A DNA stretch of 64,000 nucleotides from the NCBI RefSeq assembly GCF_002854065.1, contig NZ_CP024147.1; one strand, given 5' to 3'. Of this stretch, positions 25,497 to 63,465 are shown in pieces (the first letter of the stretch is position 1; each line of letters opens with the position of its first letter). The notes under the pieces were generated by a model, which made no database searches, was not told where the DNA came from, and saw only the letters and a list, made by a program, of their open reading frames with translations. The translations under genes were made by a program, and so were the position numbers. The DNA is from Escherichia coli. GTDB lineage: Bacteria > Pseudomonadota > Gammaproteobacteria > Enterobacterales > Enterobacteriaceae.

Positions 25497-25586
25497 TGGC
25501 GGAGAGAGGGGGATTTGAACCCCCGGTAGAGTTGCCCCTACTCCGGTTTTCGAGACCGGTCCGTTCAACCGCTCCGGCATCTCTCC
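25497..25586 (-). tRNA. serU: tRNA-Ser
   Basis: Reverse complement gives a 90-nt GGAGAGATGCCGGAGCGG…TTCAAATCCCCCTCTCTCCGCCA with long variable arm and encoded CCA. Confidence 0.9.
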
Positions 25587-26577: not shown

Positions 26578-26653
26578 TCCTCTGTAGTTCAGTCGGTAGA
26601 ACGGCGGACTGTTAATCCGTATGTCACTGGTTCGAGTCCAGTCAGAGGAGCCA
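26578..26653 (+). tRNA. asnT: tRNA-Asn
   Basis: 76-nt TCCTCTGTAGTTCAGTCGGTAGAACGGCGGACTGTTAATCCGTATGTCACTGGTTCGAGTCCAGTCAGAGGAGCCA; anticodon GTT. Confidence 0.95.
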
Positions 26654-36283: not shown

Positions 36284-36597
36284 AACTAACCTCGCCTCCC
36301 TACTGGTTATAATGCAATGCAGTCTATCAGAATCATCAGGGTGCAATTTTGTGCATATGCGGACTTTTATGTTTCATATCTCGAACCTGTGGGTCCTCTG
36401 CTTAATCCTTAAACAACACCAGCAACTCCCGCGCTTTCATCTTCCAGCGAATTTTTCATGTTGCCGCTAATCAGCCATAAAATCATTTGCAGATGCGCTC
36501 TGTCGAGGTAGTCTCATAAGGTTCGTTTATAGATCGACGGCAATGTGAGTTACCTTTTCCATACTAATTATAAAAAGACAGTACAAACAGGATCATT

Positions 36598-37914
36598 ATG
36601 GACTCCACGCTCATCTCCACTCGTCCCGATGAAAGGACGGTTTCGTTAAGTCGCGCCCGACGAGCTGCGTTAGGCAGTTTCGCTGGTGCCGTCGTCGACT
36701 GGTATGATTTTTTACTCTATGGCATCACCGCCGCACTGGTGTTTAATCGCGAGTTTTTCCCGCAAGTAAGCCCGGCGATGGGAACGCTCGCCGCATTTGC
36801 TACCTTTGGCGTCGGATTCCTTTTCCGTCCGCTCGGCGGTGTCATTTTCGGTCACTTTGGCGACCGACTGGGACGTAAGCGCATGTTAATGCTGACCGTC
36901 TGGATGATGGGCATCGCGACAGCCTTGATTGGTATTCTTCCTTCATTCTCGACCATTGGGTGGTGGGCACCTATTTTGCTGGTGACGCTGCGTGCCATTC
37001 AGGGATTTGCCGTCGGCGGCGAATGGGGAGGCGCGGCGTTGCTTTCCGTTGAAAGTGCACCGAAAAATAAAAAAGCCTTTTACAGTAGCGGTGTACAAGT
37101 TGGCTACGGTGTAGGTTTACTGCTTTCAACCGGACTGGTTTCATTGATCAGTATGATGACGACTGACGAACAGTTTTTAAGCTGGGGCTGGCGTATTCCT
37201 TTCCTGTTTAGCATCGTACTGGTACTGGGAGCATTGTGGGTGCGCAATGGCATGGAGGAGTCTGCGGAATTTGAACAACAGCAACATAATCAAGCGGCCG
37301 CGAAAAAACGCATCCCGGTTATCGAAGCGCTGTTACGACATCCCGGTGCTTTCCTGAAGATTATTGCGCTACGACTGTGCGAGTTGCTGACAATGTACAT
37401 CGTTACCGCGTTTGCACTTAATTATTCAACTCAGAATATGGGGTTACCGCGCGAACTTTTCCTTAATATTGGTTTGCTGGTAGGTGGATTAAGCTGCCTG
37501 ACAATTCCCTGTTTTGCCTGGCTTGCCGATCGTTTTGGTCGCCGCAGGGTTTATATCACAGGTGCGTTAATCGGAACGTTGAGCGCATTTCCTTTCTTTA
37601 TGGCGCTTGAAGCACAATCTATTTTCTGGATAGTTTTCTTCTCCATAATGCTGGCAAACATTGCGCATGACATGGTGGTGTGTGTGCAACAACCGATGTT
37701 TACCGAAATGTTTGGTGCCAGTTATCGCTATAGTGGCGCTGGAGTCGGTTATCAGGTTGCCAGTGTGGTTGGTGGTGGATTTACACCTTTTATTGCCGCT
37801 GCACTCATCACTTACTTTGCCGGGAACTGGCATAGCGTCGCCATTTATTTGCTGGCTGGATGCCTGATTTCCGCAATAACCGCTTTGTTGATGAAAGACA
37901 ATCAACGCGCTTGA
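36598..37914 (+). CDS. shiA: Shikimate:H+ symporter ShiA (MFS)
   Basis: 438 aa 12-TM MFS transporter recognised as ShiA. Confidence 0.9.
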   Translation: MDSTLISTRPDERTVSLSRARRAALGSFAGAVVDWYDFLLYGITAALVFNREFFPQVSPAMGTLAAFATFGVGFLFRPLGGVIFGHFGDRLGRKRMLMLTVWMMGIATALIGILPSFSTIGWWAPILLVTLRAIQGFAVGGEWGGAALLSVESAPKNKKAFYSSGVQVGYGVGLLLSTGLVSLISMMTTDEQFLSWGWRIPFLFSIVLVLGALWVRNGMEESAEFEQQQHNQAAAKKRIPVIEALLRHPGAFLKIIALRLCELLTMYIVTAFALNYSTQNMGLPRELFLNIGLLVGGLSCLTIPCFAWLADRFGRRRVYITGALIGTLSAFPFFMALEAQSIFWIVFFSIMLANIAHDMVVCVQQPMFTEMFGASYRYSGAGVGYQVASVVGGGFTPFIAAALITYFAGNWHSVAIYLLAGCLISAITALLMKDNQRA

Positions 37915-38015
37915 TAGTCTGGCGAAGATCATCCGATCTTCGCCTTGCACTTTTGTTTCACATTTCTGTGACATACTATCGGATGTGCGGTAATTGTATG
38001 GAACAGGAGACACAC

Positions 38016-39470
38016 ATGAATAATAAGGGCTCCGGTCTGACCCCAGCTCAGGCACTGGATAAACTCGACGCGCTGTATGAGCAATCTGTAGTCGCATTAC
38101 GCAACGCCATTGGCAACTATATTACAAGTGGCGAATTACCTGATGAAAACGCCCGCAAACAAGGTCTTTTTGTCTATCCATCTCTGACCGTAACCTGGGA
38201 CGGTAGCACAACCAATCCCCCTAAAACGCGCGCATTTGGTCGTTTTACTCACGCAGGCAGCTACACCACCACGATTACTCGCCCTACTCTCTTTCGTTCG
38301 TATCTCAATGAACAACTTACGTTGCTGTATCAGGATTATGGTGCGCATATCTCGGTGCAACCCTCGCAGCATGAAATCCCTTATCCTTATGTCATCGATG
38401 GCTCTGAATTGACACTTGATCGCTCAATGAGCGCTGGGTTAACTCGCTACTTCCCGACAACAGAACTGGCGCAAATTGGCGATGAAACTGCAGACGGCAT
38501 TTATCATCCAACTGAATTCTCCCCGCTATCGCATTTTGATGCGCGCCGCGTCGATTTTTCCCTCGCACGGTTGCGCCATTATACCGGTACGCCAGTTGAA
38601 CATTTTCAGCCGTTCGTCTTGTTTACCAACTACACACGTTATGTGGATGAATTCGTTCGTTGGGGATGCAGCCAGATCCTCGATCCTGATAGTCCCTACA
38701 TTGCCCTTTCTTGTGCTGGCGGGAACTGGATCACCGCCGAAACCGAAGCGCCAGAAGAAGCCATTTCCGACCTTGCATGGAAAAAACACCAGATGCCAGC
38801 ATGGCATTTAATTACCGCCGATGGTCAGGGTATTACTCTGGTGAATATTGGCGTGGGACCGTCAAATGCTAAAACCATCTGCGATCATCTGGCAGTGCTA
38901 CGCCCGGATGTCTGGTTGATGATTGGTCACTGTGGCGGATTACGTGAAAGTCAGGCCATTGGCGATTATGTACTTGCACACGCTTATTTACGCGATGACC
39001 ACGTTCTTGATGCGGTTCTGCCGCCCGATATTCCTATTCCGAGCATTGCTGAAGTGCAACGTGCGCTTTATGACGCCACCAAGCTGGTGAGCGGCAGGCC
39101 CGGTGAGGAAGTTAAACAGCGGCTACGTACTGGCACTGTAGTAACCACTGATGACAGGAACTGGGAATTACGTTACTCAGCTTCTGCACTTCGTTTTAAC
39201 TTAAGCCGGGCCGTAGCAATTGATATGGAAAGTGCAACCATTGCCGCGCAAGGATATCGTTTCCGCGTGCCATACGGGACACTACTGTGTGTTTCAGATA
39301 AACCGTTGCATGGCGAGATTAAACTTCCCGGCCAGGCTAACCGTTTTTATGAAGGTGCTATTTCCGAACACCTGCAAATTGGCATTAGGGCGATCGATTT
39401 GCTGCGCGCAGAAGGCGACCGACTGCATTCACGTAAATTACGAACCTTTAATGAGCCGCCGTTCCGATAA
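38016..39470 (+). CDS. amn: AMP nucleosidase
   Basis: 484 aa from internal ATG (MNNKGSGLTPAQALDKL…); the ORF track start at 37860 overlaps shiA. Confidence 0.9.
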   Translation: MNNKGSGLTPAQALDKLDALYEQSVVALRNAIGNYITSGELPDENARKQGLFVYPSLTVTWDGSTTNPPKTRAFGRFTHAGSYTTTITRPTLFRSYLNEQLTLLYQDYGAHISVQPSQHEIPYPYVIDGSELTLDRSMSAGLTRYFPTTELAQIGDETADGIYHPTEFSPLSHFDARRVDFSLARLRHYTGTPVEHFQPFVLFTNYTRYVDEFVRWGCSQILDPDSPYIALSCAGGNWITAETEAPEEAISDLAWKKHQMPAWHLITADGQGITLVNIGVGPSNAKTICDHLAVLRPDVWLMIGHCGGLRESQAIGDYVLAHAYLRDDHVLDAVLPPDIPIPSIAEVQRALYDATKLVSGRPGEEVKQRLRTGTVVTTDDRNWELRYSASALRFNLSRAVAIDMESATIAAQGYRFRVPYGTLLCVSDKPLHGEIKLPGQANRFYEGAISEHLQIGIRAIDLLRAEGDRLHSRKLRTFNEPPFR

Positions 39471-39812
39471 TAAGTTCTGAACCTTCTTATCAAAAATAGA
39501 TGTGAAGGATTAAGTAAGACATCTGGCAAATAGCCCGCAATAAACGCGGGCTGTTTGCTTCCTTGGGCGGATACGAGTTTTATTATCGTCTTAATGATTT
39601 CCACATATTAAAAGCAAGTATGCTTTCAAAACACAATTATAAAAAATCCCACCAACAATATAAGTTTTTATAAAATTAAATATAAGATTATGACTTTAGA
39701 ATATTTTTATTTCTAATAGACGAGATTTTTCCTGTTATGATATAATATGCCGAATTAACACATGTTAACGATTTACCAGTAATGTAAATAAATTTTCGAG
39801 GAGATCATTCCA

Positions 39813-40529
39813 GTGGGACGTAAATGGGCCAATATTGTTGCTAAAAAAACGGCTAAAGACGGTGCAACGTCTAAAATTTATGCAAAATTCGGTGTAGAAA
39901 TCTATGCTGCTGCTAAACAAGGTGAACCCGATCCAGAATTAAACACATCTTTAAAATTCGTTATTGAACGTGCAAAACAGGCACAAGTTCCAAAGCACGT
40001 TATTGATAAAGCAATTGATAAAGCCAAAGGCGGCGGAGATGAAACATTCGTGCAGGGCCGTTATGAAGGCTTTGGCCCTAATGGCTCAATGATTATCGCC
40101 GAGACATTGACTTCAAATGTTAACCGTACGATTGCTAACGTTCGCACAATTTTCAATAAAAAAGGCGGCAATATCGGAGCGGCAGGTTCTGTCAGCTATA
40201 TGTTTGACAATACGGGTGTGATTGTATTTAAAGGATCAGACCCTGACCATATTTTTGAAATTTTACTTGAAGCTGAAGTTGATGTTCGTGATGTGACTGA
40301 AGAAGAAGGTAACATTGTTATTTATACTGAACCTACTGACCTTCATAAAGGAATCGCGGCTCTAAAAGCAGCTGGAATCACTGAGTTCTCAACAACAGAA
40401 TTAGAAATGATTGCTCAATCTGAAGTTGAGCTTTCCCCAGAAGATTTAGAAATCTTTGAAGGGCTTGTTGATGCCCTTGAAGATGACGACGATGTACAAA
40501 AAGTTTATCATAACGTCGCAAATCTCTAA
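39813..40529 (+). CDS. yeeN: YebC/PmpR-family transcriptional regulator YeeN
   Basis: 238 aa, GTG start ([13 protein letters not shown]…); conspicuously AT-rich codon usage. Confidence 0.85.
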
Positions 40530-40649
40530 TTATATTTTAAAGAAATCTGTCTTTATGGCAGATTTCTTTAATCTCATATAATCCTTATAAAAAATATAAT
40601 GTTTAACTCGTCATATTGCTTATAAAAAATCCCCGGTAATGACTCCAAC

Positions 40650-41153
40650 TTATTGATAGTGTTTTATGTTCAGATAATGCCCGATGACTTTGTCATGCAG
40701 CTCCACCGATTTTGAGAACGACAGCGACTTCCGTCCCAGCCGTGCCAGGTGCTGCCTCAGATTCAGGTTATGCCGCTCAATTCGCTGCGTATATCGCTTG
40801 CTGATTACGTGCAGCTTTCCCTTCAGGCGGGATTCATACAGCGGCCAGCCATCCGTCATCCATATCACCACGTCAAAGGGTGACAGCAGGCTCATAAGAC
40901 GCCCCAGCGTCGCCATAGTGCGTTCACCGAATACGTGCGCAACAACCGTCTTCCGGAGCCTGTCATACGCGTAAAACAGCCAGCGCTGGCGCGATTTAGC
41001 CCCGACGTATCCCCACTGTTCGTCCATTTCCGCGCAGACGATGACGTCACTGCCCGGCTGTATGCGCGAGGTTACCGACTGCGGCCTGAGTTTTTTAAAT
41101 GGCGGAAAATCGTGTTGAGGCCAACGCCCATAATGCGGGCGGTTGCCCGGCAT
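40650..41153 (-). CDS. insB: IS1 InsB' (expressed as InsAB' transposase by -1 frameshift at the A6C motif)
   Basis: 167 aa ORF recognised as IS1 InsB; an AAAAAAC slippery site (reverse strand) lies in the insA/insB overlap near 41090. Confidence 0.9.
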
Positions 41154-41347
41154 CCAACGCCATTCATGGCCATATCAATGATTTTCTGGTGCGTACCGGG
41201 TTGAGAAGCGGTGTAAGTGAACTGCAGTTGCCATGTTTTACGGCAGTGAGAGCAGAGATAGCGCTGATGTCCGGCAGTGCTTTTGCCGTTACGCACCACC
41301 CCGTCAGTAGCTGAACAGGAGGGACAGCTGATAGAAACAGAAGCCAC
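41072..41347 (-). CDS. insA: IS1 InsA
   Basis: 91 aa ORF ([30 protein letters not shown]…) recognised as IS1 InsA. Confidence 0.9.
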
Positions 41348-41663
41348 TGGAGCACCTCAAAAACACCATCATACACTAAATCAGTAAGTTGGCAGCATCA
41401 CCAAAATCCCCGTTCTCAGAGAAATAATATTTATTAAAATGGCAGGTCTTCTTTTTCTGATTACCGAAGACAAAGTGGCAATTACGTATAGTTTCCCGAT
41501 AAAGACACGACAGCAACATCCCGCATAAGGCATTGTTCTCTTTATCTTTGTACGGTACTTCATGGAACAGAGATTTTGACCTTGCGAATCGTGATGTCTG
41601 TTGGGGGCAATTTGCTCACTGAAGCGTGAGACTCGATTAAACGCACGAAACACAGAAATCAAA

Positions 41664-41700
41664 AAACCCGGCCACTTTTTTACAAAGTGACCGGGTAAAA
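41664..41700 (-). terminator. Terminator hairpin downstream of asnW (bidirectional-looking)
   Basis: CCCGGTCACTTTG…AAAGTGGCCGGG hairpin followed by TTTTTT on the minus strand. Confidence 0.55.
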
Positions 41701-41757
41701 ATAATTTTTATTTTTTAACTGCCTTGAGACTCATAGAGATGTCTCAAAACTAAAATT

Positions 41758-41833
41758 TGGCTCCTCTGACTGGACTCGAACCAGTGACATACGGATTAAC
41801 AGTCCGCCGTTCTACCGACTGAACTACAGAGGA
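41758..41833 (-). tRNA. asnW: tRNA-Asn
   Basis: Reverse complement is identical to the 76-nt asnT sequence; TTGACA-17-TAATAT promoter on the minus strand at 41852-41880. Confidence 0.95.
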
Positions 41834-41933
41834 ATCGTGAGAACGAGGCGAATATTAGCGATGCCCACCCACAATGTCAAAGCCTGTTTTTTAAATTTGA
41901 AATCGTTTGCTGAAATAATCTGCATTTTGTCGT

Positions 41934-43421
41934 TTATTCCGACACAGCTGGCTTTTTTTCACACTTTTGCGGTTCGGGTCGAGGGTATTTCCACAGCCAA
42001 CGTCCAGTAACCATTCGCCAGTAAAACAGCACGGCCCGCACAGCCCAGTCGGCAAACATTCCCATCCAGACACCAACCACACCCCAGCCAAGCATGATGC
42101 CCAGCACATAACCGACGACAACCCGGCAACCCCACATGCTCAACATAGAAACCCACATAGCGTAACGGGCGTCACGAGCCCCCTTAAATCCAGCGGGTAG
42201 CACCCATGAAGCGGACCAAATAGGCATAAATAAAGCATTTAGCCAAACCAGAATCACAACGACATGTTTAACCTGTGGATCCTGGGTGTAAAACGATGCC
42301 ATAACCCCGGCAAAGGGAGCCGTTAGCCAGGCGATGGCCGTTAATCCAAGAGTGGAAAGCCAGAACACATGCCGCAACTGAATCTCTGCTTGCGCTATCT
42401 GCCCTACCCCCAACCTTCGGCCTGTAATGATCGTAGAAGCAGAGCCGAGCGCACTTCCGGGTAAGTTGATAAGAGCCGCAATTGAAAACGCGATAAAATT
42501 TCCGGCAATAACACTGGTCCCCATCCCGGCAACGAACATTTGGGTTAATAACCGACCACTGGTAAATAACACTGATTCGACACTCGCTGGAATACCAATC
42601 CCCATGACTTCCCAGATAATGCTAAAATTCAGCGGTTTAAAATAGCTCTTTAACGAAATCCTTAGCGCAGGATTAAAACCAATCGCCAACACCCACAAAA
42701 TTGCAACTGCGCCAATATAACGAGAAATGGTTAAACCCAACCCAGCCCCGACAAATCCCAGTCCCGGCCAGGAGAAAAGGCCGTAAATCAATATGCCGCT
42801 AATAATAATATTAAGAATATTCAGGCTACCGTTAATCAGTAGCGGTATTTTCGTATTCCCTGCACCACGAAGTGCCCCGCTACCAATTAGAGTGATGGCA
42901 GCTGCTGGATAACTGAGTACCGTCAGCTCCAGATAAGTCAACGCCAGTGCTTTAACTTCTGTCGTGGCATCACCCGCGACGAAATCAATAATTTGCTCGC
43001 CAAAATGATGAATAAGCGTTGCCAACAGTACGGCAAACAACGTCATGATCACCAATGACTGCCGCGTCGCCACCCTCGCTCGTCGTCGATCCCGCTTACC
43101 GAGACTAAATGCCACAACGACAGTAGTACCAAGATCGATAGCAGCAAAAAAAGCCATAATGACCATATTGAAGCTGTCCGCCAATCCCACGCCGGCCATC
43201 GCATCTTTTCCCAGCCAGCTGACCAGAAAAGTGCTCAGAACCCCCATCAACAGGACACAGGCATTCTCCATGAAGATAGGAACAGCAAGCGGGGTTATCT
43301 CGCGCCAGAACAACACTTTGTAGCTCTTGCGTTTAGCGTGCCAGCGAGTGCCGTGAACAACCTGGCGTAAAGCAGAGGAGATATTCAAAGCCGACCTTAA
43401 TTGCAGAAAGTGAAACCACAT
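41934..43421 (-). CDS. yeeO: MATE-family efflux transporter YeeO
   Basis: 495 aa from MWFHFLQLRS…; 12-TM MATE architecture; the ORF track extension to 43577 is probably not translated. Confidence 0.85.
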   Translation of the reverse strand: MWFHFLQLRSALNISSALRQVVHGTRWHAKRKSYKVLFWREITPLAVPIFMENACVLLMGVLSTFLVSWLGKDAMAGVGLADSFNMVIMAFFAAIDLGTTVVVAFSLGKRDRRRARVATRQSLVIMTLFAVLLATLIHHFGEQIIDFVAGDATTEVKALALTYLELTVLSYPAAAITLIGSGALRGAGNTKIPLLINGSLNILNIIISGILIYGLFSWPGLGFVGAGLGLTISRYIGAVAILWVLAIGFNPALRISLKSYFKPLNFSIIWEVMGIGIPASVESVLFTSGRLLTQMFVAGMGTSVIAGNFIAFSIAALINLPGSALGSASTIITGRRLGVGQIAQAEIQLRHVFWLSTLGLTAIAWLTAPFAGVMASFYTQDPQVKHVVVILVWLNALFMPIWSASWVLPAGFKGARDARYAMWVSMLSMWGCRVVVGYVLGIMLGWGVVGVWMGMFADWAVRAVLFYWRMVTGRWLWKYPRPEPQKCEKKPAVSE

Positions 43422-43537
43422 TTCAAATAATGAGGGAGAATCAGCAAAGCTGCAAAGATTTTCGCCAACAAATTGTCTGCAAATGCAACAAACTGTTGAT
43501 AGAAACGGCAAACAGTTGGGGAATTTAAAAATCGGGT

Positions 43538-43565
43538 TTGACAAAAGATTTTTCGCCGTTAAGAT
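43538..43565 (+). promoter_or_regulatory. asnU promoter (sigma70 -35/-10)
   Basis: TTGACA, 16-bp spacer, TAAGAT upstream of asnU. Confidence 0.55.
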
Positions 43566-43581
43566 GTGCCTCAACAACGAT

Positions 43582-43657
43582 TCCTCTGTAGTTCAGTCGG
43601 TAGAACGGCGGACTGTTAATCCGTATGTCACTGGTTCGAGTCCAGTCAGAGGAGCCA
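43582..43657 (+). tRNA. asnU: tRNA-Asn
   Basis: 76-nt sequence identical to asnT. Confidence 0.95.
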
Positions 43658-43666
43658 AATTCCTGA

Positions 43667-43695
43667 AAAGCCCGCTTTTATAGCGGGATTTTTGC
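43667..43695. terminator. Bidirectional terminator between asnU and cbl
   Basis: AAAAGCCCGCTTTTATAGCGGGATTTTTG: hairpin flanked by an A-run and a T-run. Confidence 0.6.
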
Positions 43696-44645
43696 TATAT
43701 CTGATAATCAATTTCCTCTTCACTGCTTTCCATCACCTGCCGCTTGATATCCTCAACTGACAGTCCTGCATTACAAAGTTCCAGAAAGCGCCAGACATAG
43801 TTACGCTGAAGTTGTCCTCGCTTCAGTCCCAACCAGACAGTATTAGCATCAAAAAGATGCCGCGTATCCAGGCGGATTAAATTCTCTTCCTCTTGTTCGC
43901 CACTGGATTGCTCGGCAACTAATCCGATCCCAAGCCCAAGAGCAACATAGGTTTTAATGACATCAGAATCCTGCGCACTTAATACAATATCTGCCAGCAA
44001 ACCTTTGCGGGCAAATGCGTCATCAATACGTGAGCGCCCCGTAATCCCCTGTCGGTAAGTGATTAACGGCCACTTCGCTATTGATTCCAGCGTCAATGGT
44101 GAAATTTGCGTCAAGGGATGATCGTGTGGAACAAGCAAACTATGGTGCCAACGAAACCACGGGAAGGCGACGAGCTGCGGGTCATTACTCAAACGCTCGC
44201 TGGCGATACCAATATCAGCTTCGCCATTTTGCAACAATGTCGCAATTTCCTGTGGCGTCCCCTGGATTAGCTCGAGCCGAACCTCCGGGAAAAGTTCGCG
44301 AAAAGCTTTAATGACCTCTGGCAAGCTATAACGTGCCTGAGTATGCGTCGTTGCAATAGTGAGAACGCCAGACGTATCGTTGGTAAACAGGTCTGCAAGC
44401 CGACGAACATTACTGGCTTCATTCAGAATACGTTCTGCAATGACCAGTAATGCTTTGCCCGGTTCAGTCATGCCCAGCAGTCGCTTACCTCGTCGAACAA
44501 ATATTTCGATGCCAAGTTCATCCTCCAGTTCCCGAATATGACGGCTGACGCCTGACTGTGAGGTAAAAAGCATATTCGCAACCTCTGTCAGGTTGTAATC
44601 CTGACGTGCAGCCTCGCGGATTATCTTTAGTTGTTGGAAATTCAC
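43695..44645 (-). CDS. cbl: LysR-family regulator Cbl (sulfonate/sulfur utilisation)
   Basis: 316 aa ORF (MNFQQLKIIREAARQDYNLTEVA…) recognised as Cbl. Confidence 0.9.
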   Translation of the reverse strand: MNFQQLKIIREAARQDYNLTEVANMLFTSQSGVSRHIRELEDELGIEIFVRRGKRLLGMTEPGKALLVIAERILNEASNVRRLADLFTNDTSGVLTIATTHTQARYSLPEVIKAFRELFPEVRLELIQGTPQEIATLLQNGEADIGIASERLSNDPQLVAFPWFRWHHSLLVPHDHPLTQISPLTLESIAKWPLITYRQGITGRSRIDDAFARKGLLADIVLSAQDSDVIKTYVALGLGIGLVAEQSSGEQEEENLIRLDTRHLFDANTVWLGLKRGQLQRNYVWRFLELCNAGLSVEDIKRQVMESSEEEIDYQI

Positions 44646-44746
44646 GGTAAACTCCGGGCAGTTCAGATTTCCCGTTATTGTTAAAGTCTAATGCCCGGCA
44701 TAACAAATAATAAAAACCCGCATCTTATTCCATCCCGATATAACAC

Positions 44747-45664
44747 TTAGCTCACCAATTGCCACTGCCTTTTTTCCATCACTGGAGAACTAATCACTGA
44801 CATTAACAACTCTTTCACTGCCTGTGCCTGTGGCGATAAGTTCGCTCTGGCGGGTAAATTTAATGACAAAGAGAGACTCATGGAAGGAGTGGTAATGCGT
44901 GACATCCACCCATTTACTGCGCCACATAACGAACGCGCGGCCGATTCGGGTAATACTGCAACGCCCATGCCGCTGGCAATCGCTGCGGTAAGCGTGGCAA
45001 TAGACTCAATTTCACCAATAACTTTTGCCGTGAGTCGCCGTAGGGAAAAAGCCTCATCAACACGAAGTCTAATAGCACTGTAATCACTGGGGAGAAAGAG
45101 GTTCATTTGCGCAATAGCATTCACATCAACGCTTTGCCCCGGGCAATCTTGAGTTCCTACCAGAAAAAGATCTTCTTTCAGCAAAGCCTGACTGGATACA
45201 CCAGCCACAGGGGAATGCTCATAAATCACCGCCATATCGAGTTGGTGATTTATCAATTTTTCGTTAAGCACTGCACCACTATTTTCATGAAGATAGATAA
45301 CGATCTCCGGAAATTCAGCGCGAACCGCCTGTAATAAGGGCATGGTGATGGATGACGCAGCGGTTCCTGGTGCAAAGCCAATCGAGACTTGCCCCGATAA
45401 TGCCTGACCAACGTTATGCACCGCCAGTTGGGCCTGTTCACACTGACGTAAAATGGCCCGCGCATGGGTATAGAGAATTTTTCCGGCGTCTGTTGGTGTA
45501 ACGCCCCGCTTTGTACGGATCAAAAGTTGTTGATTTAACTCACCTTCCAGTGTGGCAACCTGCTGGCTGAGCGCTGGTTGTGCGATATGCAATACTTCAG
45601 CAGCCTGGGTCAGGCTACCAATATCTACAATTTTTACGAAGTATTTCAGGCGTCTGAAGTTCAT
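44747..45664 (-). CDS. nac: LysR-family nitrogen assimilation control protein Nac
   Basis: 305 aa from internal ATG (MNFRRLKYFVKIVDIGSLTQAAE…). Confidence 0.9.
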   Translation of the reverse strand: MNFRRLKYFVKIVDIGSLTQAAEVLHIAQPALSQQVATLEGELNQQLLIRTKRGVTPTDAGKILYTHARAILRQCEQAQLAVHNVGQALSGQVSIGFAPGTAASSITMPLLQAVRAEFPEIVIYLHENSGAVLNEKLINHQLDMAVIYEHSPVAGVSSQALLKEDLFLVGTQDCPGQSVDVNAIAQMNLFLPSDYSAIRLRVDEAFSLRRLTAKVIGEIESIATLTAAIASGMGVAVLPESAARSLCGAVNGWMSRITTPSMSLSLSLNLPARANLSPQAQAVKELLMSVISSPVMEKRQWQLVS

Positions 45665-45943
45665 GTTGCCTCCGGTTTTTAAGAATCGGCCCAAGCGCCG
45701 CCATTACTTACAACCAGATTGCAAGATGCTTGCCAGTTTTATTTTGGTGTTGATGTACAAGCTAACCAACTGTCAAATAAGAGATTATGATAGATTCGTC
45801 ATTTGCTCCTTTAATCAGCTGTCGCGTTCCCCTGCCCTATAAAAGGAGGGTATGCACCACGATGGTTCATTACCCAATAAGATTGAAAGCTCACCACTTT
45901 GTTGAAATTGACAGCAAACAAACAAAAAAATGCATTTCACCCT

Positions 45944-45972
45944 TTGACATCACCATGCACTGCCATTAATAT
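45944..45972 (+). promoter_or_regulatory. asnV promoter (sigma70 -35/-10)
   Basis: TTGACA, 17-bp spacer, TAATAT, then GCGCCCC discriminator. Confidence 0.6.
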
Positions 45973-45990
45973 GCGCCCCGTTCACACGAT

Positions 45991-46066
45991 TCCTCTGTAG
46001 TTCAGTCGGTAGAACGGCGGACTGTTAATCCGTATGTCACTGGTTCGAGTCCAGTCAGAGGAGCCA
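45991..46066 (+). tRNA. asnV: tRNA-Asn
   Basis: 76-nt sequence identical to asnT. Confidence 0.95.
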
Positions 46067-46071
46067 AATTC

Positions 46072-46101
46072 AAAAAAGCCTGCTTTCTAGCAGGCTTTTT
46101 G
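46072..46101. terminator. Bidirectional terminator between asnV and ldtA
   Basis: AAAAAAGCCTGCTTTCTAGCAGGCTTTTTG. Confidence 0.6.
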
Positions 46102-46121
46102 CTTTCTAATTACCAACGCTC

Positions 46122-47054
46122 TTAAAACATCTGTCTTGAACCAGAACTAATTTGCACAGGCATTCCCGATCGACGTTGCAACGCAGCATTTGCGCGATTT
46201 ACATCAACTTCTTGCCCGTTGATAAACGCCCGCAAAGATGGGGTTACCGGCAATGGCACTTTTCGGTCAGACTCATATTCTGCACGATTGCGCGACAACG
46301 GCTCATGAACTTCCAGCCAGTTCGAGCCATCTGGTTCAGTGGTGTATTTTACTGGCTGGTCGATAATTTGCACACGCGTCCCAACAGGAACATTATCAAA
46401 CAGATATTTGATATCGTCATTGCGCAGACGAATACAGCCCTGACTTACCCGGAGCCCAATACCAAAATTGGCATTGGTACCATGGATGGCATACAACCTG
46501 CCAATATAAATCGCGTACAGCCCCATGGGATTATCGGGGCCCGCAGGAACAAATGCGGGCAAACTCTCCCCTCGTTTCGCATATTCGCGCCGAGTGTTCG
46601 GCGTTGGCGTCCAGGTTGGAGCTTCTTGTTTACGTTCAACGGTAGTCACCCAGTTACGCGGGGTTTCTCGCCCAGCCTGGCCGATACCAATAGGAAAGAC
46701 TTCCACAGTATTACTGTCTGGTGGGTAGTAATAAAGACGCATCTCAGCGACGTTAACAACAATCCCTTTACGAACAGTGTCGGGCAAAATCAGTTGCTGC
46801 GGAATGGTGAGTTGCGAGCCAGACTTCGGCAAAAAAACATCAGCGCCCGGGTTCGCTTCCAGCATGTTACTTAACCCTTGCCCGTATTGTGCGGCAAAAG
46901 TCTCCAGCGGCTGGGTATTGTGATCAGGAACAGTTACAGTAAACGACTGCCCCACTAAACGGCTACCCTCTGGAGGTAATGGATAAGTTACCGCCAGGCT
47001 AGTATGGCTGGCAAAAAGCAGAGCAAATGAGCAAAGAATATTTACACGACGCAT
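46122..47054 (-). CDS. ldtA: L,D-transpeptidase LdtA (ErfK)
   Basis: About 310 aa with signal peptide and YkuD-type catalytic domain, recognised as ErfK/LdtA. Confidence 0.85.
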
Positions 47055-47118
47055 CATGTCCCTTTCCTATGTCGCGAAAGCTATCCGTTAAGTATAGCTT
47101 TTATCAGACTTTTCGTTT

Positions 47119-48198
47119 TTAACTGTTCAAATCAGAAGTCGTATTCCCCGGTAGAACAATATTACTGGCAGCAAGTTCGCCCATGTTGTTGTATATCGCA
47201 CAGGCAGCTTCGATGATGGGCATCGCCAGAGCTGCGCCACTCCCCTCACCTAAACGCATCTCCATATTGAGATAAGGCTCCAGCCCCAAATGCGAGAGCG
47301 CTATACGCGCGCCTTTTTCTGCCGACAGGTGAGAAGGAATGAGATACGGTTTTATCGCAGGAGACATCTGGCAGGCTGCGAGCGCAGCAGCATAAGAAAG
47401 AAATCCATCCAGCAACACGGGTAAACCGCAGGAAGCAGCACCTAACATCACTCCAGCTATTCCGACCAAATCAAATCCACCCACTTTTGCCAGGACATCA
47501 ACACCATCCTGAGGATTTGGTTGATTCAACGTAATCGCCCGACGCACAACATCAATTTTATTAGCCAGTTTATCTGTCGGCAGGTTTGCGCCAATCCCAA
47601 CCACTTCTTCAGGATCCCGGCCAGTGATTGTGCTGACTATTGCTGCTGCCGGTGTCGTGTTTGCCATCCCCAGTTCACCTACACCAAACAGCGTGACACC
47701 GTTTTTTGCCAGCTCCTGCGTATAACATATGACGTCCAAAAGCAACTTTTCAGCCTGACGGCGACTCATTGCCGGAGCTGAAGCAATATTGCTGCTACCT
47801 CGTGCGACACGCATGTTGATAAGCCCGGGGATAGGCTCAGCAGTATCAATACCAACATCAATTACGTGGACGTTAGCGCCCGCTTGTTCTGCCAGCACAC
47901 ACACGCCGGTTGTTCCACGGGTCATATTTTCAGCCTGTATGGCTGTCACTTCTTTTGGAGAAATAGCGACCCCTTCCTCCCAGACGCCGTGATCGGCACA
48001 CATAACCAGTACCGCTTTTTTGCCCACATGCGGTATGCCATTCAACCCCGGCATTCCTGCCAGTTGTATGGCAAGCACCTCCAGCTTTCCCAGGCTACCA
48101 ACAGGTTTGAGTAACCCGTCAATATGCCGTTGTGCACGCGACATAGCGGTAGAATCGATGGCTGGGATCGTATTCAGTAAATCGGCAAGTATTTGCAT
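47119..48198 (-). CDS. cobT: Nicotinate-nucleotide:dimethylbenzimidazole phosphoribosyltransferase CobT
   Basis: 359 aa ORF recognised as CobT. Confidence 0.9.
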
Positions 48199-48209
48199 CT
48201 CACGTCTCT

Positions 48210-48953
48210 TTATAGCAGTGCCAGCAGGAAGACCAGTTCACCAAGCTCTATGGCTGCTCCCAGCGTATCGCCCGTTTGCCCGCCCAGCGTACGTTTGAGA
48301 AGCTGACCGAGGATGAAAATCGCCACCATCGTCACCACCATAGCAGCCACACCATGCATACCCGGCAATAATACGGCAGCAAAAATAGCGGCTAAGCCGA
48401 GTGTGACGCAGGTTTGTCGCCCATCAATTTTGCCAATGAACACATTGCCAAGCCCTTCTTCCCGCGCATAACGATGACGATACATCAATAATGCGGCAGT
48501 CCCGCGGCTGACCGCACATGCTGCCGCCAGCGATGCAAGGATCGATTCGCCACGCAGAGCCAACTCGCTTAACACCAGAATCTTTGCCAGTACCACAAAA
48601 ATCAATGCCAGACCGCCGTGGGTGCCTAAACGGCTATCACGCATGATTTCCAACATGCGATCGCGGCTACGTGCAGAAAATACGCCATCACAGGTATCAG
48701 CGAGGCCGTCCAGATGGAATCCCCCGGTCATCAGCACCAGCACAAGTACGCTAAACAGTGCCGCCAGTGGTGCGCCACACCATGCCTGCAGCACCATGAA
48801 GACCAGCCCGCTAATCGCGCCAAGCAATAATCCAATCAAAGGAAAAGTAATAATACCGCGAGAATAATGCTCGAAATCCAGTCCCTGGGACCAGCGACGC
48901 GGTACAGGCAGACGCGTAATAAATGAGAGCATCGCCCAAAATAATTTACTCAT
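48210..48953 (-). CDS. cobS: Cobalamin-5'-phosphate synthase CobS
   Basis: 247 aa from internal ATG ([18 protein letters not shown]…); overlaps the cobU stop by 4 bp. Confidence 0.9.
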
Positions 48954-49495
48954 TTGATTTTTACTCCAATACCCGAAACCACCAGCCATACTTCATTTGC
49001 CGCAGCGGCCAACTGCTGATTTACCCGCCCGGCAATATCACGAAAATGTCGTGCCAGACGACTCTCCGGCACAATCCCCATTCCCACTTCGTTAGTCACT
49101 AATACAACCTTTGCGGGGCAACGTTGGCAGGCAGCAATCAACGACTGAATCTCAGCATTAATCGCCTGTTCCATCGCCTGATAATCCCATTCATCAGGGT
49201 CTTTATCGCCGCCATAATCAAACAACAGATTAGTCACCATTGTGGTAACGCATTCAAGCAACACAACCTCATTCGGGTTAATGTCTGCATGAATTAATTC
49301 ATCAAGATGTTGCCAGCGCTCCACTGTGCGCCAGTGCTCCGGGCGGCCTTGCCGATGATGTTCTATCCGTGCAGCCATCTCATCATCAAGGATTTGCGAG
49401 GTAGCGATATACAGAACCTGTGAAGAGTCCCCAATAAGCGCCTCTGCGTGGCGACTCTTCCCGCTCCGTGCGCCCCCCGTCACCAAAATCATCAT
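48950..49495 (-). CDS. cobU: Adenosylcobinamide kinase / adenosylcobinamide-phosphate guanylyltransferase CobU
   Basis: 181 aa ORF with P-loop GGARSGKS. Confidence 0.9.
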
Positions 49496-50520
49496 ACCGA
49501 CTCCTGATTCAAATGTATGATGGTATTCATTGAACAGAACAATGGATCCCCCACCGTTGCTGACCGCAAAACATTTACGCGATTAATACTGCGCGTAATA
49601 TAATTAAAAATCCAGCATTCTCAATCCATTACGAAATAAGATGGCATTACGGAATAGCCAGACTTTCTCGTGTTAACGTCCGACAAAATGCGTCATTGAC
49701 AGCGGTTTCTGTGGATTGACACATTTCATTCAGATAATGAATTAATGCTACTGCCGGAACAACCAGCAAACGGGCATTGTGTTCTGAAATCCAGGCTATT
49801 GATTCAACGTCAGCGACAGATCTGCGCTGTAAAAGAACTTGTAAAACAACGTAATAGAATTATCCGGAATGGTGGCGACTATGCACTAGAACACCACAAT
49901 TTCGCTCTCTCGGTAAGGCACTGTCACAGCATTCAACAGAATGTGACTTGCCAGATTTATTAGCGCCACCAGATGTTTAACCGGGTAACCACGACCCAGT
50001 CGGGGATATATTCCATCTTCTCGCTGACATCATCAAGAATAAAAAGGTTTATCACACTCAGAGCAACGTTCTTCAGCAGGCGGGATAATTCTTCAACATT
50101 TAGAAGATGTGTTATTAAAGGCATACAAACTGGACGTATTGTATTTTCTTTTGGTGGTTGACCTAAGGTAGCAGTTTATCCTGATGCGCTGAGATTTCTG
50201 TAATATCTACGTCAACATTCTCCTCGAATAGAAAATGCAGCCCCGGCAAGTGATTCACATTTTTTAACAAAACGTTGTTAGCGTGCCATTTTCAGAAGCT
50301 CTCCAAGAAAGCGAATTCTTTTCTCAAATTCTGCATTCTCAGACACAGCTTTCTACTCCATGGTAATGGCCCAAATACGAAGTTGCTCAGGATCATTAGT
50401 GGTGCTGAGAAGTTAAATAACCATGCGGAGTACCACTCGTCATCACGTATTTATATATCATGAAGCTATTGTTGTGTTTTGTACATCAGTAGATATATTC
50501 TGATATACTCCTTTTGCTAG

Positions 50521-51715
<1,195 letters not shown>

Positions 51716-51819
51716 CTAATTTCGATAGGTTCTCAGATGAGAATGATGACGGTGATACACAGATAAGAATCAATGAGCAATGAGGGTTGCCGGGCAACCC
51801 TCATTGAATAAAACAGGAA

Positions 51820-52149
51820 TTACTTCGCTTCGCCGTTTTTCATTTCGCCCATAGCTTTCAGCTTTTTGGAGATATCGCGGCGTTCTTTGGAGAGCTCGGC
51901 ATTTTTGATGATGTAATCGTCAACGCGATCTTCATAGTCACCTTTCATGCTGGCGATGATGCCCTGGATTGCTTCAACGCTCATCCCGGGCTTGATGTAA
52001 TCGCTCAGGTTGTCCAGCAACAGGACGCGCTTCTGGTTGTCACGGATCTTTTTCTCAACGTCCTGAATTTCACGTTGCAGTTTGTTCTTACGACGGAACA
52101 GACGAACAAATTCCAGTACGTCCTGGAATGAAGGCTTGGTAGTTTCCAT
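51820..52149 (-). CDS. yeeX: UPF0265 / DUF496 protein YeeX
   Basis: 109 aa from [30 protein letters not shown]…. Confidence 0.85.
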
Positions 52150-52320
52150 TTTTATACCCCTGATAATGTGAGAGTCGGATTCGTTTAAGCAACCGCTATT
52201 CGTTAGGGCCAACATTACTCATAGCTGCCGCAGATGACAATGCTTTTATCCCTTTTCACTATCATACCCTTTATCCTTGCTGAATCGAAGCAGCAGCAAG
52301 ATGATTCTGAAGTTCAGGAA

Positions 52321-53379
52321 TTATTTGCGCAAGGCCCGGCAAATCAGATTCGATAGCAACTCAAGCTGATGTGCCGTTTCCATGTTCAGCCACACATAAC
52401 CATAGATTGGTGTTTCCACAACCTTCAGGTCATGGTGGTTATTCAGCAACTGACGCAGCTCTTCCACAGCATCGTTCAATTTTTCCGTATTGGCAAAAAC
52501 CGGCTGCGGATTACCTTCGTACAGCGCATGAACAAGGCTCAGCAGTATTTGCTGCATCATGTGCTGGGTATCACGAAGTTTTTGCGCGTTCAATAACACG
52601 AAATGGCTGGGGCGCGTGGCCCAGTATGCATTGATTTGCAACTCCAGCATACAAACCAGATTGCGGTTAATGGTCTGGATACCTTCATATATCGATTTTG
52701 GAATTCGAGTTTCTTTGCTGGCGGGCGCAATCAGCCCACGCATTTTCACGGCATCGGTCAGGAGTTTTTGTAGATGGCTTTCCAGACGTGGGCGTTCGAG
52801 TAAGTTTGGTGAGAATGCAGATTGATAAACCCGATTATACTCGGTCAGACTTTTCGCCAGTTGAATGCGCCAGTGGATGAACGCCCGTTGTGGCCAGATA
52901 CCGGTAAACAACATTGCCAGTAAAGAGCCGAGGATCACATCGCCGCTTCGCCATAACGCCGTATCAATTTCACCTGTCGGGGAACCCACAACAATTGCCA
53001 GCGTCACCCCAATCAATAATCCTTGATACGGTTTCTTGCCCAGTGCCAGCCAACCGCAAAGAAACATAGCCGCCGCGCACCAGACTAACATCAGCGGTAA
53101 CGAAATTAACTCCAGTTGCAGAGCGATAAGACCTAAAATCGAACCCAACACCGTACCGCCAATACGTTCGAAGGCGCGAGGAACAACGTTACCCCAGAAC
53201 GAGATTGGCCCCATAATCACCACCATGGTGACCAGCGGCCAGGTGCTTTCAGGGATAGTAAACAGGCGGATAATGAGAAAAGTGAGCAGGAATGCCAGCG
53301 CGACCCGAGTACCATGCACAATGCGGTAATGGCGGTATACCCGGATTTCAAACGGGCTTAATGACTTATCGGCACGCAC
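52321..53379 (-). CDS. yeeA: Inner membrane protein YeeA (FUSC-like putative transporter)
   Basis: 352 aa polytopic membrane ORF recognised as YeeA. Confidence 0.85.
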   Translation of the reverse strand: MRADKSLSPFEIRVYRHYRIVHGTRVALAFLLTFLIIRLFTIPESTWPLVTMVVIMGPISFWGNVVPRAFERIGGTVLGSILGLIALQLELISLPLMLVWCAAAMFLCGWLALGKKPYQGLLIGVTLAIVVGSPTGEIDTALWRSGDVILGSLLAMLFTGIWPQRAFIHWRIQLAKSLTEYNRVYQSAFSPNLLERPRLESHLQKLLTDAVKMRGLIAPASKETRIPKSIYEGIQTINRNLVCMLELQINAYWATRPSHFVLLNAQKLRDTQHMMQQILLSLVHALYEGNPQPVFANTEKLNDAVEELRQLLNNHHDLKVVETPIYGYVWLNMETAHQLELLSNLICRALRK

Positions 53380-53576
53380 GCAAAAACTCCGTAATGAAGA
53401 TTAAAAGCGCTCATAACTCATCTGTCGGCCAGAAGGCGCGCCTCTGAATTATCCGACGGACAAACCGGGAACAGTGTAATTTCCCGGCAGGAGCGAAAAA
53501 ATTGAAAGGCGCATCTTACTCTTTTCGCTTTCAAAAAAAGAGTGGTCATCGCGTTAACACACCGCCCTGAGATGAA

Positions 53577-54041
53577 TTAGTGATGTTTTGGCTGCACCGC
53601 AACATACATTTCGATATCCCAGTACCCATCTTCCGCGCCATTGTTCAAATAAACCTCGAAGCAGGGCTTTGGTAACATTTCATAAGCACTGTCCTGCAAG
53701 AGGCTATTAAAGAACTGATACCAGGGTTTAGCAAAATCATCACCGACTACACGAGCCACCGCCACCGCATACTGACCACCTGAAATTTCTGTCAGAATGA
53801 CGCCCTCACTGTTTTCGGGAAGCGTAAAGTTATTCGGTACCGTCACAACGGTGTCGCAGCGTAATTTTTCGGCGGGTCTTTCATCTGGATTGTCGTAATA
53901 GACAGCAACCCACTCAATATTTTTGTTATCTACCCACATCATCAACTGCTCAAAGCCTTTCTTTACCGTCTGTTCCCACGGGCCAACGAGATGGAAACCT
54001 GCAACGGTACGTTTCTCTTCCTGCTTAATCTCGTAGTTCAT
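53577..54041 (-). CDS. sbmC: DNA gyrase inhibitor SbmC (GyrI)
   Basis: 154 aa ORF ([24 protein letters not shown]…) recognised as SbmC. Confidence 0.9.
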
Positions 54042-54159
54042 GACGCCTCCATTAACACTGTTTTTATATACAGTATAGTTGCAAAATTAAAACCACAAGG
54101 AATGAGTGTTGATTATGCGAGCAGACTCGCACTCCTGCCAGTCTGCTGCAAAAGAAAGG

Positions 54160-55332
54160 TCAGGCCTTATGGTGGAAATAATCACTCAGGCGGGAAAACA
54201 TGCCGCCTTCCCCGACAGATTCCAGGGTAACCAGCGGCCAGTGCGCCACCTGTTTATCACGGTCGTAAAGTTCAATTTCCCCTACCCGCTGATGGGCGCT
54301 AATTGGCGCGGTGAGCTCTTTACCATCAAGGGTATATTTGGCTTTGATATGTGGAATTTCGGCTTTCGGTAGCACCATCCAGAACTCTTGTTCCGTTCCC
54401 AGGTCGATATTTTCTTTATCGCCATACCAGATGCGTTCCGTTCCGACCTTTTTCCCACGGTGCAAAATTTGCACCGTAGTAAAGTTTTGTTGCCCCCAAC
54501 GCAGTAATTTTCTTGCCTCTTCCTCACGACCTTTTGCACTGTCAGCCCCCATTACCACTGCAATGAGACGACGCTGCCCATCTACAGCCGAAGCAATGAG
54601 ATTAAACCCGGCACCAGAAGTATGACCCGTTTTCAGGCCGTCAACATTCATGGTTTTATCCCACAACAACCCGTTACGGTTTTGCTGGGTGATACCGTTC
54701 CAGGTGAGACTTTTCTCACTGTACATATGATAAAACTCGGGCTCGCCGTGGATGATAGCGCGAGAAAGCACAGCTAAATCATAAGCCGAGCTATGCTGGC
54801 CAGGTGCATCCAGACCATGCACTGTTTCAAAATGCGTATCCTTGAGATGCAGCTTCTCGGCATAGTTGTTCATCATTTCAACAAACTGCCGTTGCCCACC
54901 GGCAATATAGTCAGCCAGAGCAACACAAGCGTCATTTCCGGAATCCACAATTAAACCACGGCTTAAATCACGTACCGATACGCGATCGCCCTCTTTCAAA
55001 AACATCAGTGAAGAACCGACAAACACCGGATTATCTTTCGCCCACGCATCGCGCCCCACGGTGACAATATCGTCTGGCGTAATGCGATGACTATCGATAG
55101 CGCGATCCACGACATAACCCGTCATCAGCTTTGTCAGGCTGGCGGGATTGCGCTGTTGATGCTCATTACCCGCGGTGAGGATCTGTCCGGTGGTGTAATC
55201 CATCAGTACCCAGGACCCGGCTTGAATCTGTGGAGGCTGAGGTGAAAAAGGAATGTTTTCCGCCGCAAAACCAGACGATAAGTTAAAAACGAACAAAGAA
55301 GCAGCAATAATAAGACGGCGTTTCAACAGCAA
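54160..55332 (-). CDS. dacD: D-alanyl-D-alanine carboxypeptidase DacD (PBP6b)
   Basis: 390 aa with signal peptide and S11 peptidase motifs (SxxK: ASLTK; SGN). Confidence 0.9.
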   Translation of the reverse strand: MLLKRRLIIAASLFVFNLSSGFAAENIPFSPQPPQIQAGSWVLMDYTTGQILTAGNEHQQRNPASLTKLMTGYVVDRAIDSHRITPDDIVTVGRDAWAKDNPVFVGSSLMFLKEGDRVSVRDLSRGLIVDSGNDACVALADYIAGGQRQFVEMMNNYAEKLHLKDTHFETVHGLDAPGQHSSAYDLAVLSRAIIHGEPEFYHMYSEKSLTWNGITQQNRNGLLWDKTMNVDGLKTGHTSGAGFNLIASAVDGQRRLIAVVMGADSAKGREEEARKLLRWGQQNFTTVQILHRGKKVGTERIWYGDKENIDLGTEQEFWMVLPKAEIPHIKAKYTLDGKELTAPISAHQRVGEIELYDRDKQVAHWPLVTLESVGEGGMFSRLSDYFHHKA

Positions 55333-56045
55333 ACCCTCAGGAGTTTCAAATAGCTGTTCTTTTTACGGAAATACTTATGAACTGGCTGGAATAAAGTGCA
55401 AGAAAATGTGACTACCCTAGCATTTTTATCTGACATGATCTGTTGCCACTCGCTGCCAAATTGTGGCGCTAAAGCTGATTAGCACGGTGATATTTGATAC
55501 TCTGGCAGACAGCAGAAATAACGGATTTAACCTAATGATGAATGACGGTAAGCAACAATCTACCTTTTTGTTTCACGATTACGCGCAACACCCCTGAGAA
55601 CCGCCATGAATAAGGGTTTCATGATTTGTGATTTTAGTTTGGTACGCAATTTGGTACACAACACAATTTTCACTTCAGCGGGTAGTCATCAAACTCACCA
55701 TAACGAGCATCGTTGATGATGTATGTGATCACCACAAATATCACATCTGGACTAGTTCCGTCTTCATGCGCAGGTATCTGTTCACGCCTCCCTTTCTGCA
55801 AATCCTAAAGATGAGATTTTGGGGTTTTGGGATATCTTTTTATCCTCAGTTCTCTATCCATTCTACAAAGCAGTAATGAACCATCACTATGTGATAGTGA
55901 GGCATCCGCTACATTAAGCGCAGAGAAATGATGCAGTGGTGGTCGGACTGGATTGATGAAAAGGTGTGATCGGTTAGCGCAAGACGAATCACCACCCTCG
56001 CCAGTTTTGAGTTGTTTTGCGCTAATTTTTTACCCCACCTCTGCC

Positions 56046-56076
56046 CCATCAAAAGAAAACCCGCTCTAGCGGGTTC
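56046..56076 (-). terminator. Terminator hairpin immediately downstream of the acyltransferase gene
   Basis: On the minus strand, AACCCGCTAGAGCGGGTT hairpin followed by TTCTTTTG, right after the stop at 56082. Confidence 0.5.
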
Positions 56077-56081
56077 ATGTC

Positions 56082-57152
56082 TCAGGCCTCTTTGCCCTTC
56101 TCTATCGCTGAGGGCTTGTCAGGAAGCAATGCGCTTATACGTCCCTTAAGGTACTTGTACATTCTGACGTCGATGAATGCTGCGTATAAATACGCTAGCA
56201 CTATCGAGACAGCAATCATTTTTACCGCCCCCATAAATGGATCTCCCTCAACAATACCGGTAATCATCACAGGGAAATGGAGAAGGTACAGAGGGAAGCT
56301 GATAAACCCTAAAAACTGGACTGGTGCAGAGTAAAGGAACCGTTTAACCAGGGACTCATCATTCATGTAATCGACAGTTAGCAGGGGAAGAAATGCCACC
56401 ATGTAGAAATAATCCATCCTGTTGGTATGCGAAGGTTGAGCATAGAGCCCGGCAAAGCATACAAACAGACACATAGCCAAAAAAACATTCTTTTGAGGTA
56501 GTTTAGTGAAACTCTCGTACCATTTTAATTTTATGATCGAGTACATACCCGATCCCATCAAAAGACATGATGATGCAAAAACAAAATTGTACATCCCGAA
56601 AAGCTCTGGACTACCGAGCCCTCTGGCAGAAACAACAGCCAGATAAATAAATGCCAAAATAGAAATACATAACCTTGAAAGCGGCCCCATTCTCAAGAAC
56701 AGAACTGGAATCAACATGGACGCCCAAAATTCTATGCTGACACTCCACGAAGGTTCATTTATCAAATTGAATGATAATGGGGTAGACCCATGTATAAATG
56801 CTAAATTCGCTACCCATGTCCTGATACTAAATACGTAATCACCTGGCACATAACCACCATTAAGGCTATTTACGTAGTAAATGATTACCATTATCACTGA
56901 TGATATAAAGGTAAGAGGCCACAGTCTTGCCAGTCTATTCAAAAAATATGACGGGATAGACGCCCCATTTCTTACTGAGTGGGTAAGCACAAATCCCGAT
57001 ATGATGAAAAAATATGCAACAGCCAAGTGAGGGCCGTTGAATGGCCCATCATTTTTCCAACCAGTAACAGCATTGATGGCGTGATTTAGGAGCACTGCGC
57101 ATGCAAAAAGGCCGCGCAAACCATCAACAGCATAGAAGCGTTTAATTTCCAT
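56082..57152 (-). CDS. Acyltransferase family 3 integral membrane protein (OafA/Oac-like; candidate surface-polysaccharide O-acetyltransferase)
   Basis: 356 aa, about 10 transmembrane segments, N-terminal AVDGLRG…H motif typical of acyltransferase_3; lies downstream of tail-fibre genes where phage conversion genes commonly sit. Confidence 0.7.
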   Translation of the reverse strand: MEIKRFYAVDGLRGLFACAVLLNHAINAVTGWKNDGPFNGPHLAVAYFFIISGFVLTHSVRNGASIPSYFLNRLARLWPLTFISSVIMVIIYYVNSLNGGYVPGDYVFSIRTWVANLAFIHGSTPLSFNLINEPSWSVSIEFWASMLIPVLFLRMGPLSRLCISILAFIYLAVVSARGLGSPELFGMYNFVFASSCLLMGSGMYSIIKLKWYESFTKLPQKNVFLAMCLFVCFAGLYAQPSHTNRMDYFYMVAFLPLLTVDYMNDESLVKRFLYSAPVQFLGFISFPLYLLHFPVMITGIVEGDPFMGAVKMIAVSIVLAYLYAAFIDVRMYKYLKGRISALLPDKPSAIEKGKEA

Positions 57153-57271
57153 AACAATTTATTTAAAAAAAGAAAAATTATACTAGAAATATATCATCAA
57201 CATCTATGCCATTGATGATTAAGTGATGGTTGTCACGGTTTTGTGTTTCTGGCTGGAATGCTGGCAGTGCT

Positions 57272-57460
57272 TTACTCGCTTGACTCAGGATCGGTGAATA
57301 CTCCATCTTCATAAATCCATCCAATTCTGCATGGTATTCCGTCTATTTTAACAACCTGATAATCATCAAAAATATGCCCCTCACCATCCCATATAACAAT
57401 ATTTACAACTATTCCATCTGTAATTAATGCATATCTCATGCAAACTCCTCCACAAGACAA
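57272..57460 (-). CDS. Hypothetical small protein downstream of the tail fibre (possible tail-fibre-associated protein)
   Basis: 62 aa ORF overlapping the 3' end of the tail-fibre gene by 25 bp; no recognisable family. Confidence 0.3.
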
Positions 57461-58362: not shown

Positions 58363-58365
58363 GGA

Positions 58366-63375: not shown

Positions 63376-63465
63376 TATGATTTGTTATAAGCTACTCTGT
63401 TTCAGACGCTTCTTTCGAAGCGCCAGAGAACATTTACCTTTAAGGAGAGGTATAAATGGAAATGT

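Follow-up and report, generated by a model that had tools for sequence, protein, structure and literature searches.

The stretch of Escherichia coli DNA analyzed here (64 kb in all, hereafter the window) carries an intact IS1 element in the AT-rich, noncoding spacer toward which yeeN and asnW converge. A simple insertion accounts for the element and its surroundings, and we put the probability of this reading at about 96%. The finding is real, ordinary and already known—a textbook IS1 simple insertion, which is also already annotated in a public genome, that of strain CUWW06, by PGAP according to the collection description. As a routine, clean and probably harmless event, it is of small biological importance in itself.

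A complete IS1 between two copies of a 9-bp target

A first-pass annotation, made from the sequence alone, had placed an IS1 between yeeN and asnW and flanked it with a 9-bp target duplication; a script run on the window sequence confirmed both, and every one of its coordinates is right. The 9-mer AAAATCCCC lies at 40626-40634 and again at 41403-41411, in both cases directly abutting an end of the element, and the interval between the two copies, 40635-41402, measures exactly 768 bp. Across its junctions the window reads ...TTGCTTATAAAAAATCCCC / GGTAATGACTCC...(IS1)...GGCAGCATCACC / AAAATCCCCGTTCTCAG.... Leftward extension of the repeat is impossible, position 40625 being A and position 41402 being C, and the G at 41412, identical to the first base of IS1, introduces a trivial one-base ambiguity. 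Identity over 9 bp at two fixed positions has a chance probability of ~4e-6 (4^-9). The element and its flanking duplication comprise the following features.

40626-40634, no strand: target-site duplication, left copy AAAATCCCC, found as a single copy in empty-site genomes
40635-41402, minus strand: complete IS1, 768 bp, with IRR at the left in the window, IRL at the right, and insA and insB on the minus strand
40635-40657, plus strand: IRR, 23-bp terminal inverted repeat GGTAATGACTCCAACTTATTGAT, with which IS1 begins
40650-41153, minus strand: insB open reading frame alone, 167 aa, from the ORF list
40650-41347, minus strand: InsAB' transposase coding region, 232 aa after a -1 frameshift, by translation
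41072-41347, minus strand: insA, 91 aa, GTG start, from the ORF list
41090-41098, minus strand: A6C frameshift motif TTAAAAAAC in the overlap of insA and insB, read in the insA frame
41380-41402, minus strand: IRL, 23-bp terminal inverted repeat GGTGATGCTGCCAACTTACTGAT, with whose reverse complement IS1 ends
41403-41411, no strand: target-site duplication, right copy AAAATCCCC, as read from the sequence

The element at 40635-41402 has every sequence-level defining feature of IS1. Its two terminal repeats match each other at 18 of 23 positions, and the translated InsAB' is matched by three Pfam domains: Zn_ribbon_InsA at residues 1-36 (PF03811, E = 7.9e-21), HTH_Tnp_IS1 at 43-86 (PF12759, 6.3e-28) and DDE_Tnp_IS1 at 102-232 (PF03400, 3.7e-78). 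Each of the three passes its curated cut-off and spans the whole, or nearly the whole, of its profile. Set against E. coli IS1, the element has the same length, terminal repeats, insA and insB arrangement, A6C site, InsAB' domains and AT-rich 9-bp duplication; we found no difference between the two, which makes the copy an ordinary family member. Its 768 bp are 100% identical to copies in strain LR-31 (L007) and beside cobU in CUWW06, and the CUWW06 record names the matching coding sequence “IS1-like element IS1B family transposase” (WP_095033700.1), with the remark “programmed frameshift”. The intact sequence, together with the differing positions of IS1 in CUWW06, suggests that this copy may be capable of transposition.

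The established biology of IS1 supplies a plausible course of events. Ribosomes shifting by -1 at the A6C motif would produce InsAB', which would bind the two 23-bp terminal repeats and join the element to staggered target cuts 9 bp apart; repair of the resulting gaps would then yield the direct AAAATCCCC duplication. The element may have arrived by direct insertion or by way of a cointegrate that was later resolved, and both routes fit the sequence.

The target itself is poor in GC, with 25% within +-50 bp of the site and 34% over the spacer, as opposed to 49% for the window. IS1 is known to prefer AT-rich targets of 8 or 9 bp, with 9 bp duplicated in 78% of events (PMC10359306), and the AT-rich target and 9-bp duplication found here agree with that reported preference. 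A search for the IHF consensus WATCAANNNNTTR with 0 or 1 mismatch, which is a weak test of targeting, gave no match within +-150 bp of the site.

The empty site in IS1-free relatives

The first-pass annotation had proposed a check: delete 40635-41411 in silico and compare the rejoined sequence with genomes that are free of IS1 at this site. The check succeeds, since the rejoined sequence occurs unbroken and at 100% identity in two IS1-free genomes. The query consisted of 800 bp of rejoined sequence, searched against 5,426 complete E. coli genomes from RefSeq, and it aligned without interruption at 100% to NZ_CM128593.1 (strain 100416, from human stool, Gambia) and to NZ_CP135595.1 (GDSC2227PM, from a vegetable, China). 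In NZ_CP182139.1 (CUWW06, from wastewater, Thailand) it matched in two pieces, with IS1 between them. The regional allele is a rare one: six records are at least 99% identical to the 800-bp query, and most records fall between 95 and 99%.

Strain 100416 offers the more extended comparison. When 12.8 kb surrounding the site was compared by local BLAST, the left 6,401 bp aligned with the window at 100% and the right 6,409 bp with 1 mismatch, and the two alignments overlap by the 9-mer and the ambiguous G only. The IS1 and the duplicated 9-mer are thus the sole structural difference from strain 100416, which excludes both a recombination junction and a chance repeat. The view that the element arose by transposition, and is not a recombination product, is likewise borne out here: the flanks are contiguous in strain 100416 over the 12.8 kb, and the same duplication stands at both ends. 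No later IS1–IS1 recombination has taken place at the insertion.

A small deletion-like difference also characterizes the local allele. Relative to the form common elsewhere, the spacer of the window is without 4 nt (GGAG in a G run) at 41604-41605, corresponding to alignment columns 299-302. Among the loci examined, this 4-nt-less allele is common to the window, CUWW06, GDSC2227PM and strain 100416 only.

Carriers of the insertion and other explanations of its origin

A query of the IS1 with its 300-bp flanks found a single-piece 100% match in CUWW06 only among the 5,426 complete E. coli genomes, as did a 100-bp query across the right junction. Two more single-piece matches to the right junction, at 96%, are insertions 2-3 bp away. 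CUWW06 (transposase coding sequence at 2845909-2846606 of NZ_CP182139.1) has its element at the same site, in the same orientation, with the same duplication and the same IS1 sequence as the window, and across the 11.5 kb surrounding the site the two genomes agree at 99.99%. Among complete RefSeq genomes, then, the insertion event appears to be recent and confined to one clone.

The two genomes nonetheless differ in their other insertion sequences. CUWW06 has an IS5 upstream of shiA (equivalent to window 36286-36289) that the window is without, whereas the IS5 copy of the window lies at 50517-51719; CUWW06 also has the IS1 beside cobU (equivalent to 49736-49744), identical to the copy studied here and absent from the window, and it is without the second IS1 of the window at 63520. 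From these differing IS sets it follows that the window genome and CUWW06 are sister strains and not one genome, and from 99.99% identity combined with a different IS set, that the insertion is shared by descent within a small clone. At least 40 places in CUWW06 match IS1, and the clone has seen recent IS traffic, its elements having kept moving. The insertion could serve as a marker for this one small E. coli clone, composed of the window genome and CUWW06.

Identity to CUWW06 is at least 99.99% at 36286-49744 and then 98.56% (188 mismatches in 13.8 kb) at 49736-63519, whose CUWW06 counterpart holds tmaR, yeeA, sbmC and dacD, followed by phage tail and baseplate genes. The drop in identity beyond the cob genes is likely a recombination boundary or a prophage difference.

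An alternative origin for the element is import: the IS1 would have been acquired through homologous recombination as part of a piece of donor chromosome that already contained it, with the transposition itself having occurred in another lineage. The region is recombinogenic, as illustrated by GDSC2227PM, which is 99.89% identical on the left flank and 98.89% on the right, and by the fall of CUWW06 to 98.56% from window position 49736 onward. Against this stand the 12.8 kb around the site, which are identical, bar one SNP, to the IS1-free strain 100416, and the rarity of the allele (the six records noted above at 99% identity or more), which means that any donor would have to belong to the same clone. 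Moreover, the exact junction occurs in no genome of the collection other than CUWW06. We therefore regard import as very improbable, and favor insertion by transposition within the clone itself.

A second IS1 in the same orientation begins 22 kb away, at 63520-64000, where it is cut by the window end, and it invites the question of whether the copy at 40635 forms an arm of a composite transposon or of a product of recombination with its neighbor. The right end of a like-oriented element at this distance speaks for such an arrangement, but the copy at 40635 is flanked by a matching duplication of its own, the two copies differ at 6 of 481 positions (the second being another variant), and CUWW06 has the 40635 copy without the 63520 copy. 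Furthermore, up to position 47811 the DNA lying between the two copies belongs to the core chromosome (asnW, yeeO, asnU, cbl, nac, asnV, ldtA and part of cobT) and is collinear with IS1-free genomes. Own duplication, variant difference, collinearity and CUWW06 together led us to reject a composite transposon, the chances of which we hold to be negligible. As direct repeats, the two IS1 copies could in principle recombine, thereby deleting asnW, yeeO, asnU, cbl, nac, asnV, ldtA and the cob genes. Equally negligible is the notion that the 9-mers match by coincidence or belong to the native sequence, for which the sole argument is the low complexity of the motif (an A run, then a C run), and against which the empty-site genomes carry one copy of the 9-mer, while on either strand of the 64-kb window it has no copies further to the two that abut the IS1 ends.

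Neighboring genes and likely effect

The gene names of the first-pass annotation hold, in that K-12 MG1655 and the RefSeq annotation agree on the order yeeN, tRNA-Asn (asnW in K-12) and yeeO. The features on either side of the insertion are these.

39813-40529, plus strand: yeeN (YebC/PmpR family), intact, ending 105 bp before IS1
40537-40571, plus strand: hairpin 3' of yeeN, a probable intrinsic terminator, intact (-18.7 kcal/mol, z = -8.05)
41381-41662, minus strand: 93-aa open reading frame with a TTG start, running 22 nt into IS1
41666-41696, minus strand: terminator-like hairpin of asnW with a T run, intact (-22.5 kcal/mol, z = -6.59)
41758-41833, minus strand: tRNA-Asn(GUU), asnW by K-12 synteny, intact, called by ARAGORN

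On the yeeN side the hairpin ends 63 nt before IS1 and was not flagged by a terminator consensus scan; on the asnW side, 263 bp separate the hairpin from the IS1 end. The distance from the IS1 end to the tRNA-Asn, earlier estimated at about 350 bp, measures 355 bp. Neither K-12 MG1655 nor the RefSeq annotation has an annotated feature between yeeN and asnW, and an Rfam scan of the empty-site locus (E <= 1) gave tRNAs and sub-threshold matches only, with no family at its gathering score in the spacer. A known RNA at the target was accordingly rejected, the nearest Rfam family, manA-II, reaching 30 bits vs a gathering score of 100. Judged from position alone, the insertion is probably selectively neutral, because IS1 sits in AT-rich DNA beyond the terminators of both convergent genes.

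The 93-aa open reading frame had been called a chimeric artefact. It does cross the right junction, and it is not a gene, but it was not created by the insertion, which merely swapped its end codons: the last six codons and the stop codon are IS1 sequence, whereas at the empty site the same frame continues uninterrupted for 103 aa. The 93-aa frame has no Pfam match and no annotation in the K-12 or RefSeq records examined, and in other strains an indel falls inside the frame, of 4 nt in most and 3 nt in one. With no Pfam match, no annotation and a frame-breaking indel elsewhere, both the 93-aa frame and its 103-aa empty-site form were rejected as genes.

More widely, the window contains four tRNA-Asn(GUU) genes and one tRNA-Ser(CGA) gene, at 25497-25586, 26578-26653, 41758-41833, 43582-43657 and 45991-46066. 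The tRNA-Asn genes at 41758, 43582 and 45991 reproduce the K-12 arrangement asnW, asnU and asnV, and that at 26578 is presumably asnT, going by the K-12 map.

Other IS1 insertions in the same spacer

The 450-bp spacer (window 40530-40634 plus 41412-41757) has received IS1 repeatedly. Across the strains we found at least eight distinct IS1 events at six places, with duplications of 8 or 9 bp. A stretch of 12 bp, TAAAAAATCCCC, accounts for four of the events, which come from unrelated strains and include both orientations, and three insertions in other strains fall within 1-3 bp of the site used in the window. Strains, duplications and orientations are as follows.

JKHS016: duplication TATAATTCT, same orientation as the window
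PC-NDM34: duplication TAAAAAATC, same orientation as the window
DFL.5: duplication AAAAATCCC, same orientation as the window
CP53: duplication AAAAATCC (8 bp), opposite orientation to the window
Window and CUWW06: duplication AAAATCCCC, the reference orientation
ATCC 43886: duplication CGAAGACAA, opposite orientation to the window
Strain 64, 23CRST007 and GZ04-0086: duplication TAGTTTCC (8 bp), same orientation as the window
BEC1-S17-ESBL-09: duplication CGGTACTTC, same orientation as the window
J31: duplication CGGTACTTC, opposite orientation to the window

Compared with the window, the other spacer insertions differ in target position and in flanking allele, and some also in orientation or in IS1 variant. 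These differences in position, orientation, variant and flanking allele identify them as independent events. One 9-mer, CGGTACTTC, served as the target in each of two strains (L005 and L014), the two elements facing opposite ways.

Three further events within 3 bp among ~5,400 genomes lie far above the expectation for uniform insertion, and this holds even with the bias introduced by our queries, which were centered on the window site and so found nearby events preferentially. IS1 has a known regional specificity, with which the clustering in the spacer is consistent, and no new phenomenon need be invoked. On balance, the yeeN–asnW spacer is quite likely a natural hot spot for IS1 insertion, with TAAAAAATCCCC as its preferred target. 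If so, it would provide a natural test case for IS1 target choice, for which the candidate causes include DNA that is AT-rich or bent, bound nucleoid proteins, or simply a tolerance of insertions between convergent terminators. The repeated use of the spacer illustrates both the AT preference of IS1 and the tolerance for insertions of intergenic DNA between convergent terminators.

The insertion with duplication TAGTTTCC (L003 986-1753; equivalent to window 41488/41489) lies 85 bp to the right of the window site. Among the matches listed for its junction, 60 of 60 are single pieces at 100%. Up to 195 of the 5,426 genomes reach 80% coverage with the junction query, and 100-bp junction counts at “>=80% covered” include, besides exact junctions, IS1 copies lying as much as a few hundred bp off; exact sites were set by fetching the loci and then locating the IS1 ends and duplications directly. 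Most carriers of the TAGTTTCC insertion probably share it by descent within a large lineage. Beyond the spacer, more IS1 insertions occur at the very end of the yeeN coding sequence (its last codons), in the DNA upstream of that gene, in the asnW–yeeO interval and within yeeO, and one strain, GZ04-0086, combines the TAGTTTCC copy with a second IS1 that interrupts the last yeeN codons.
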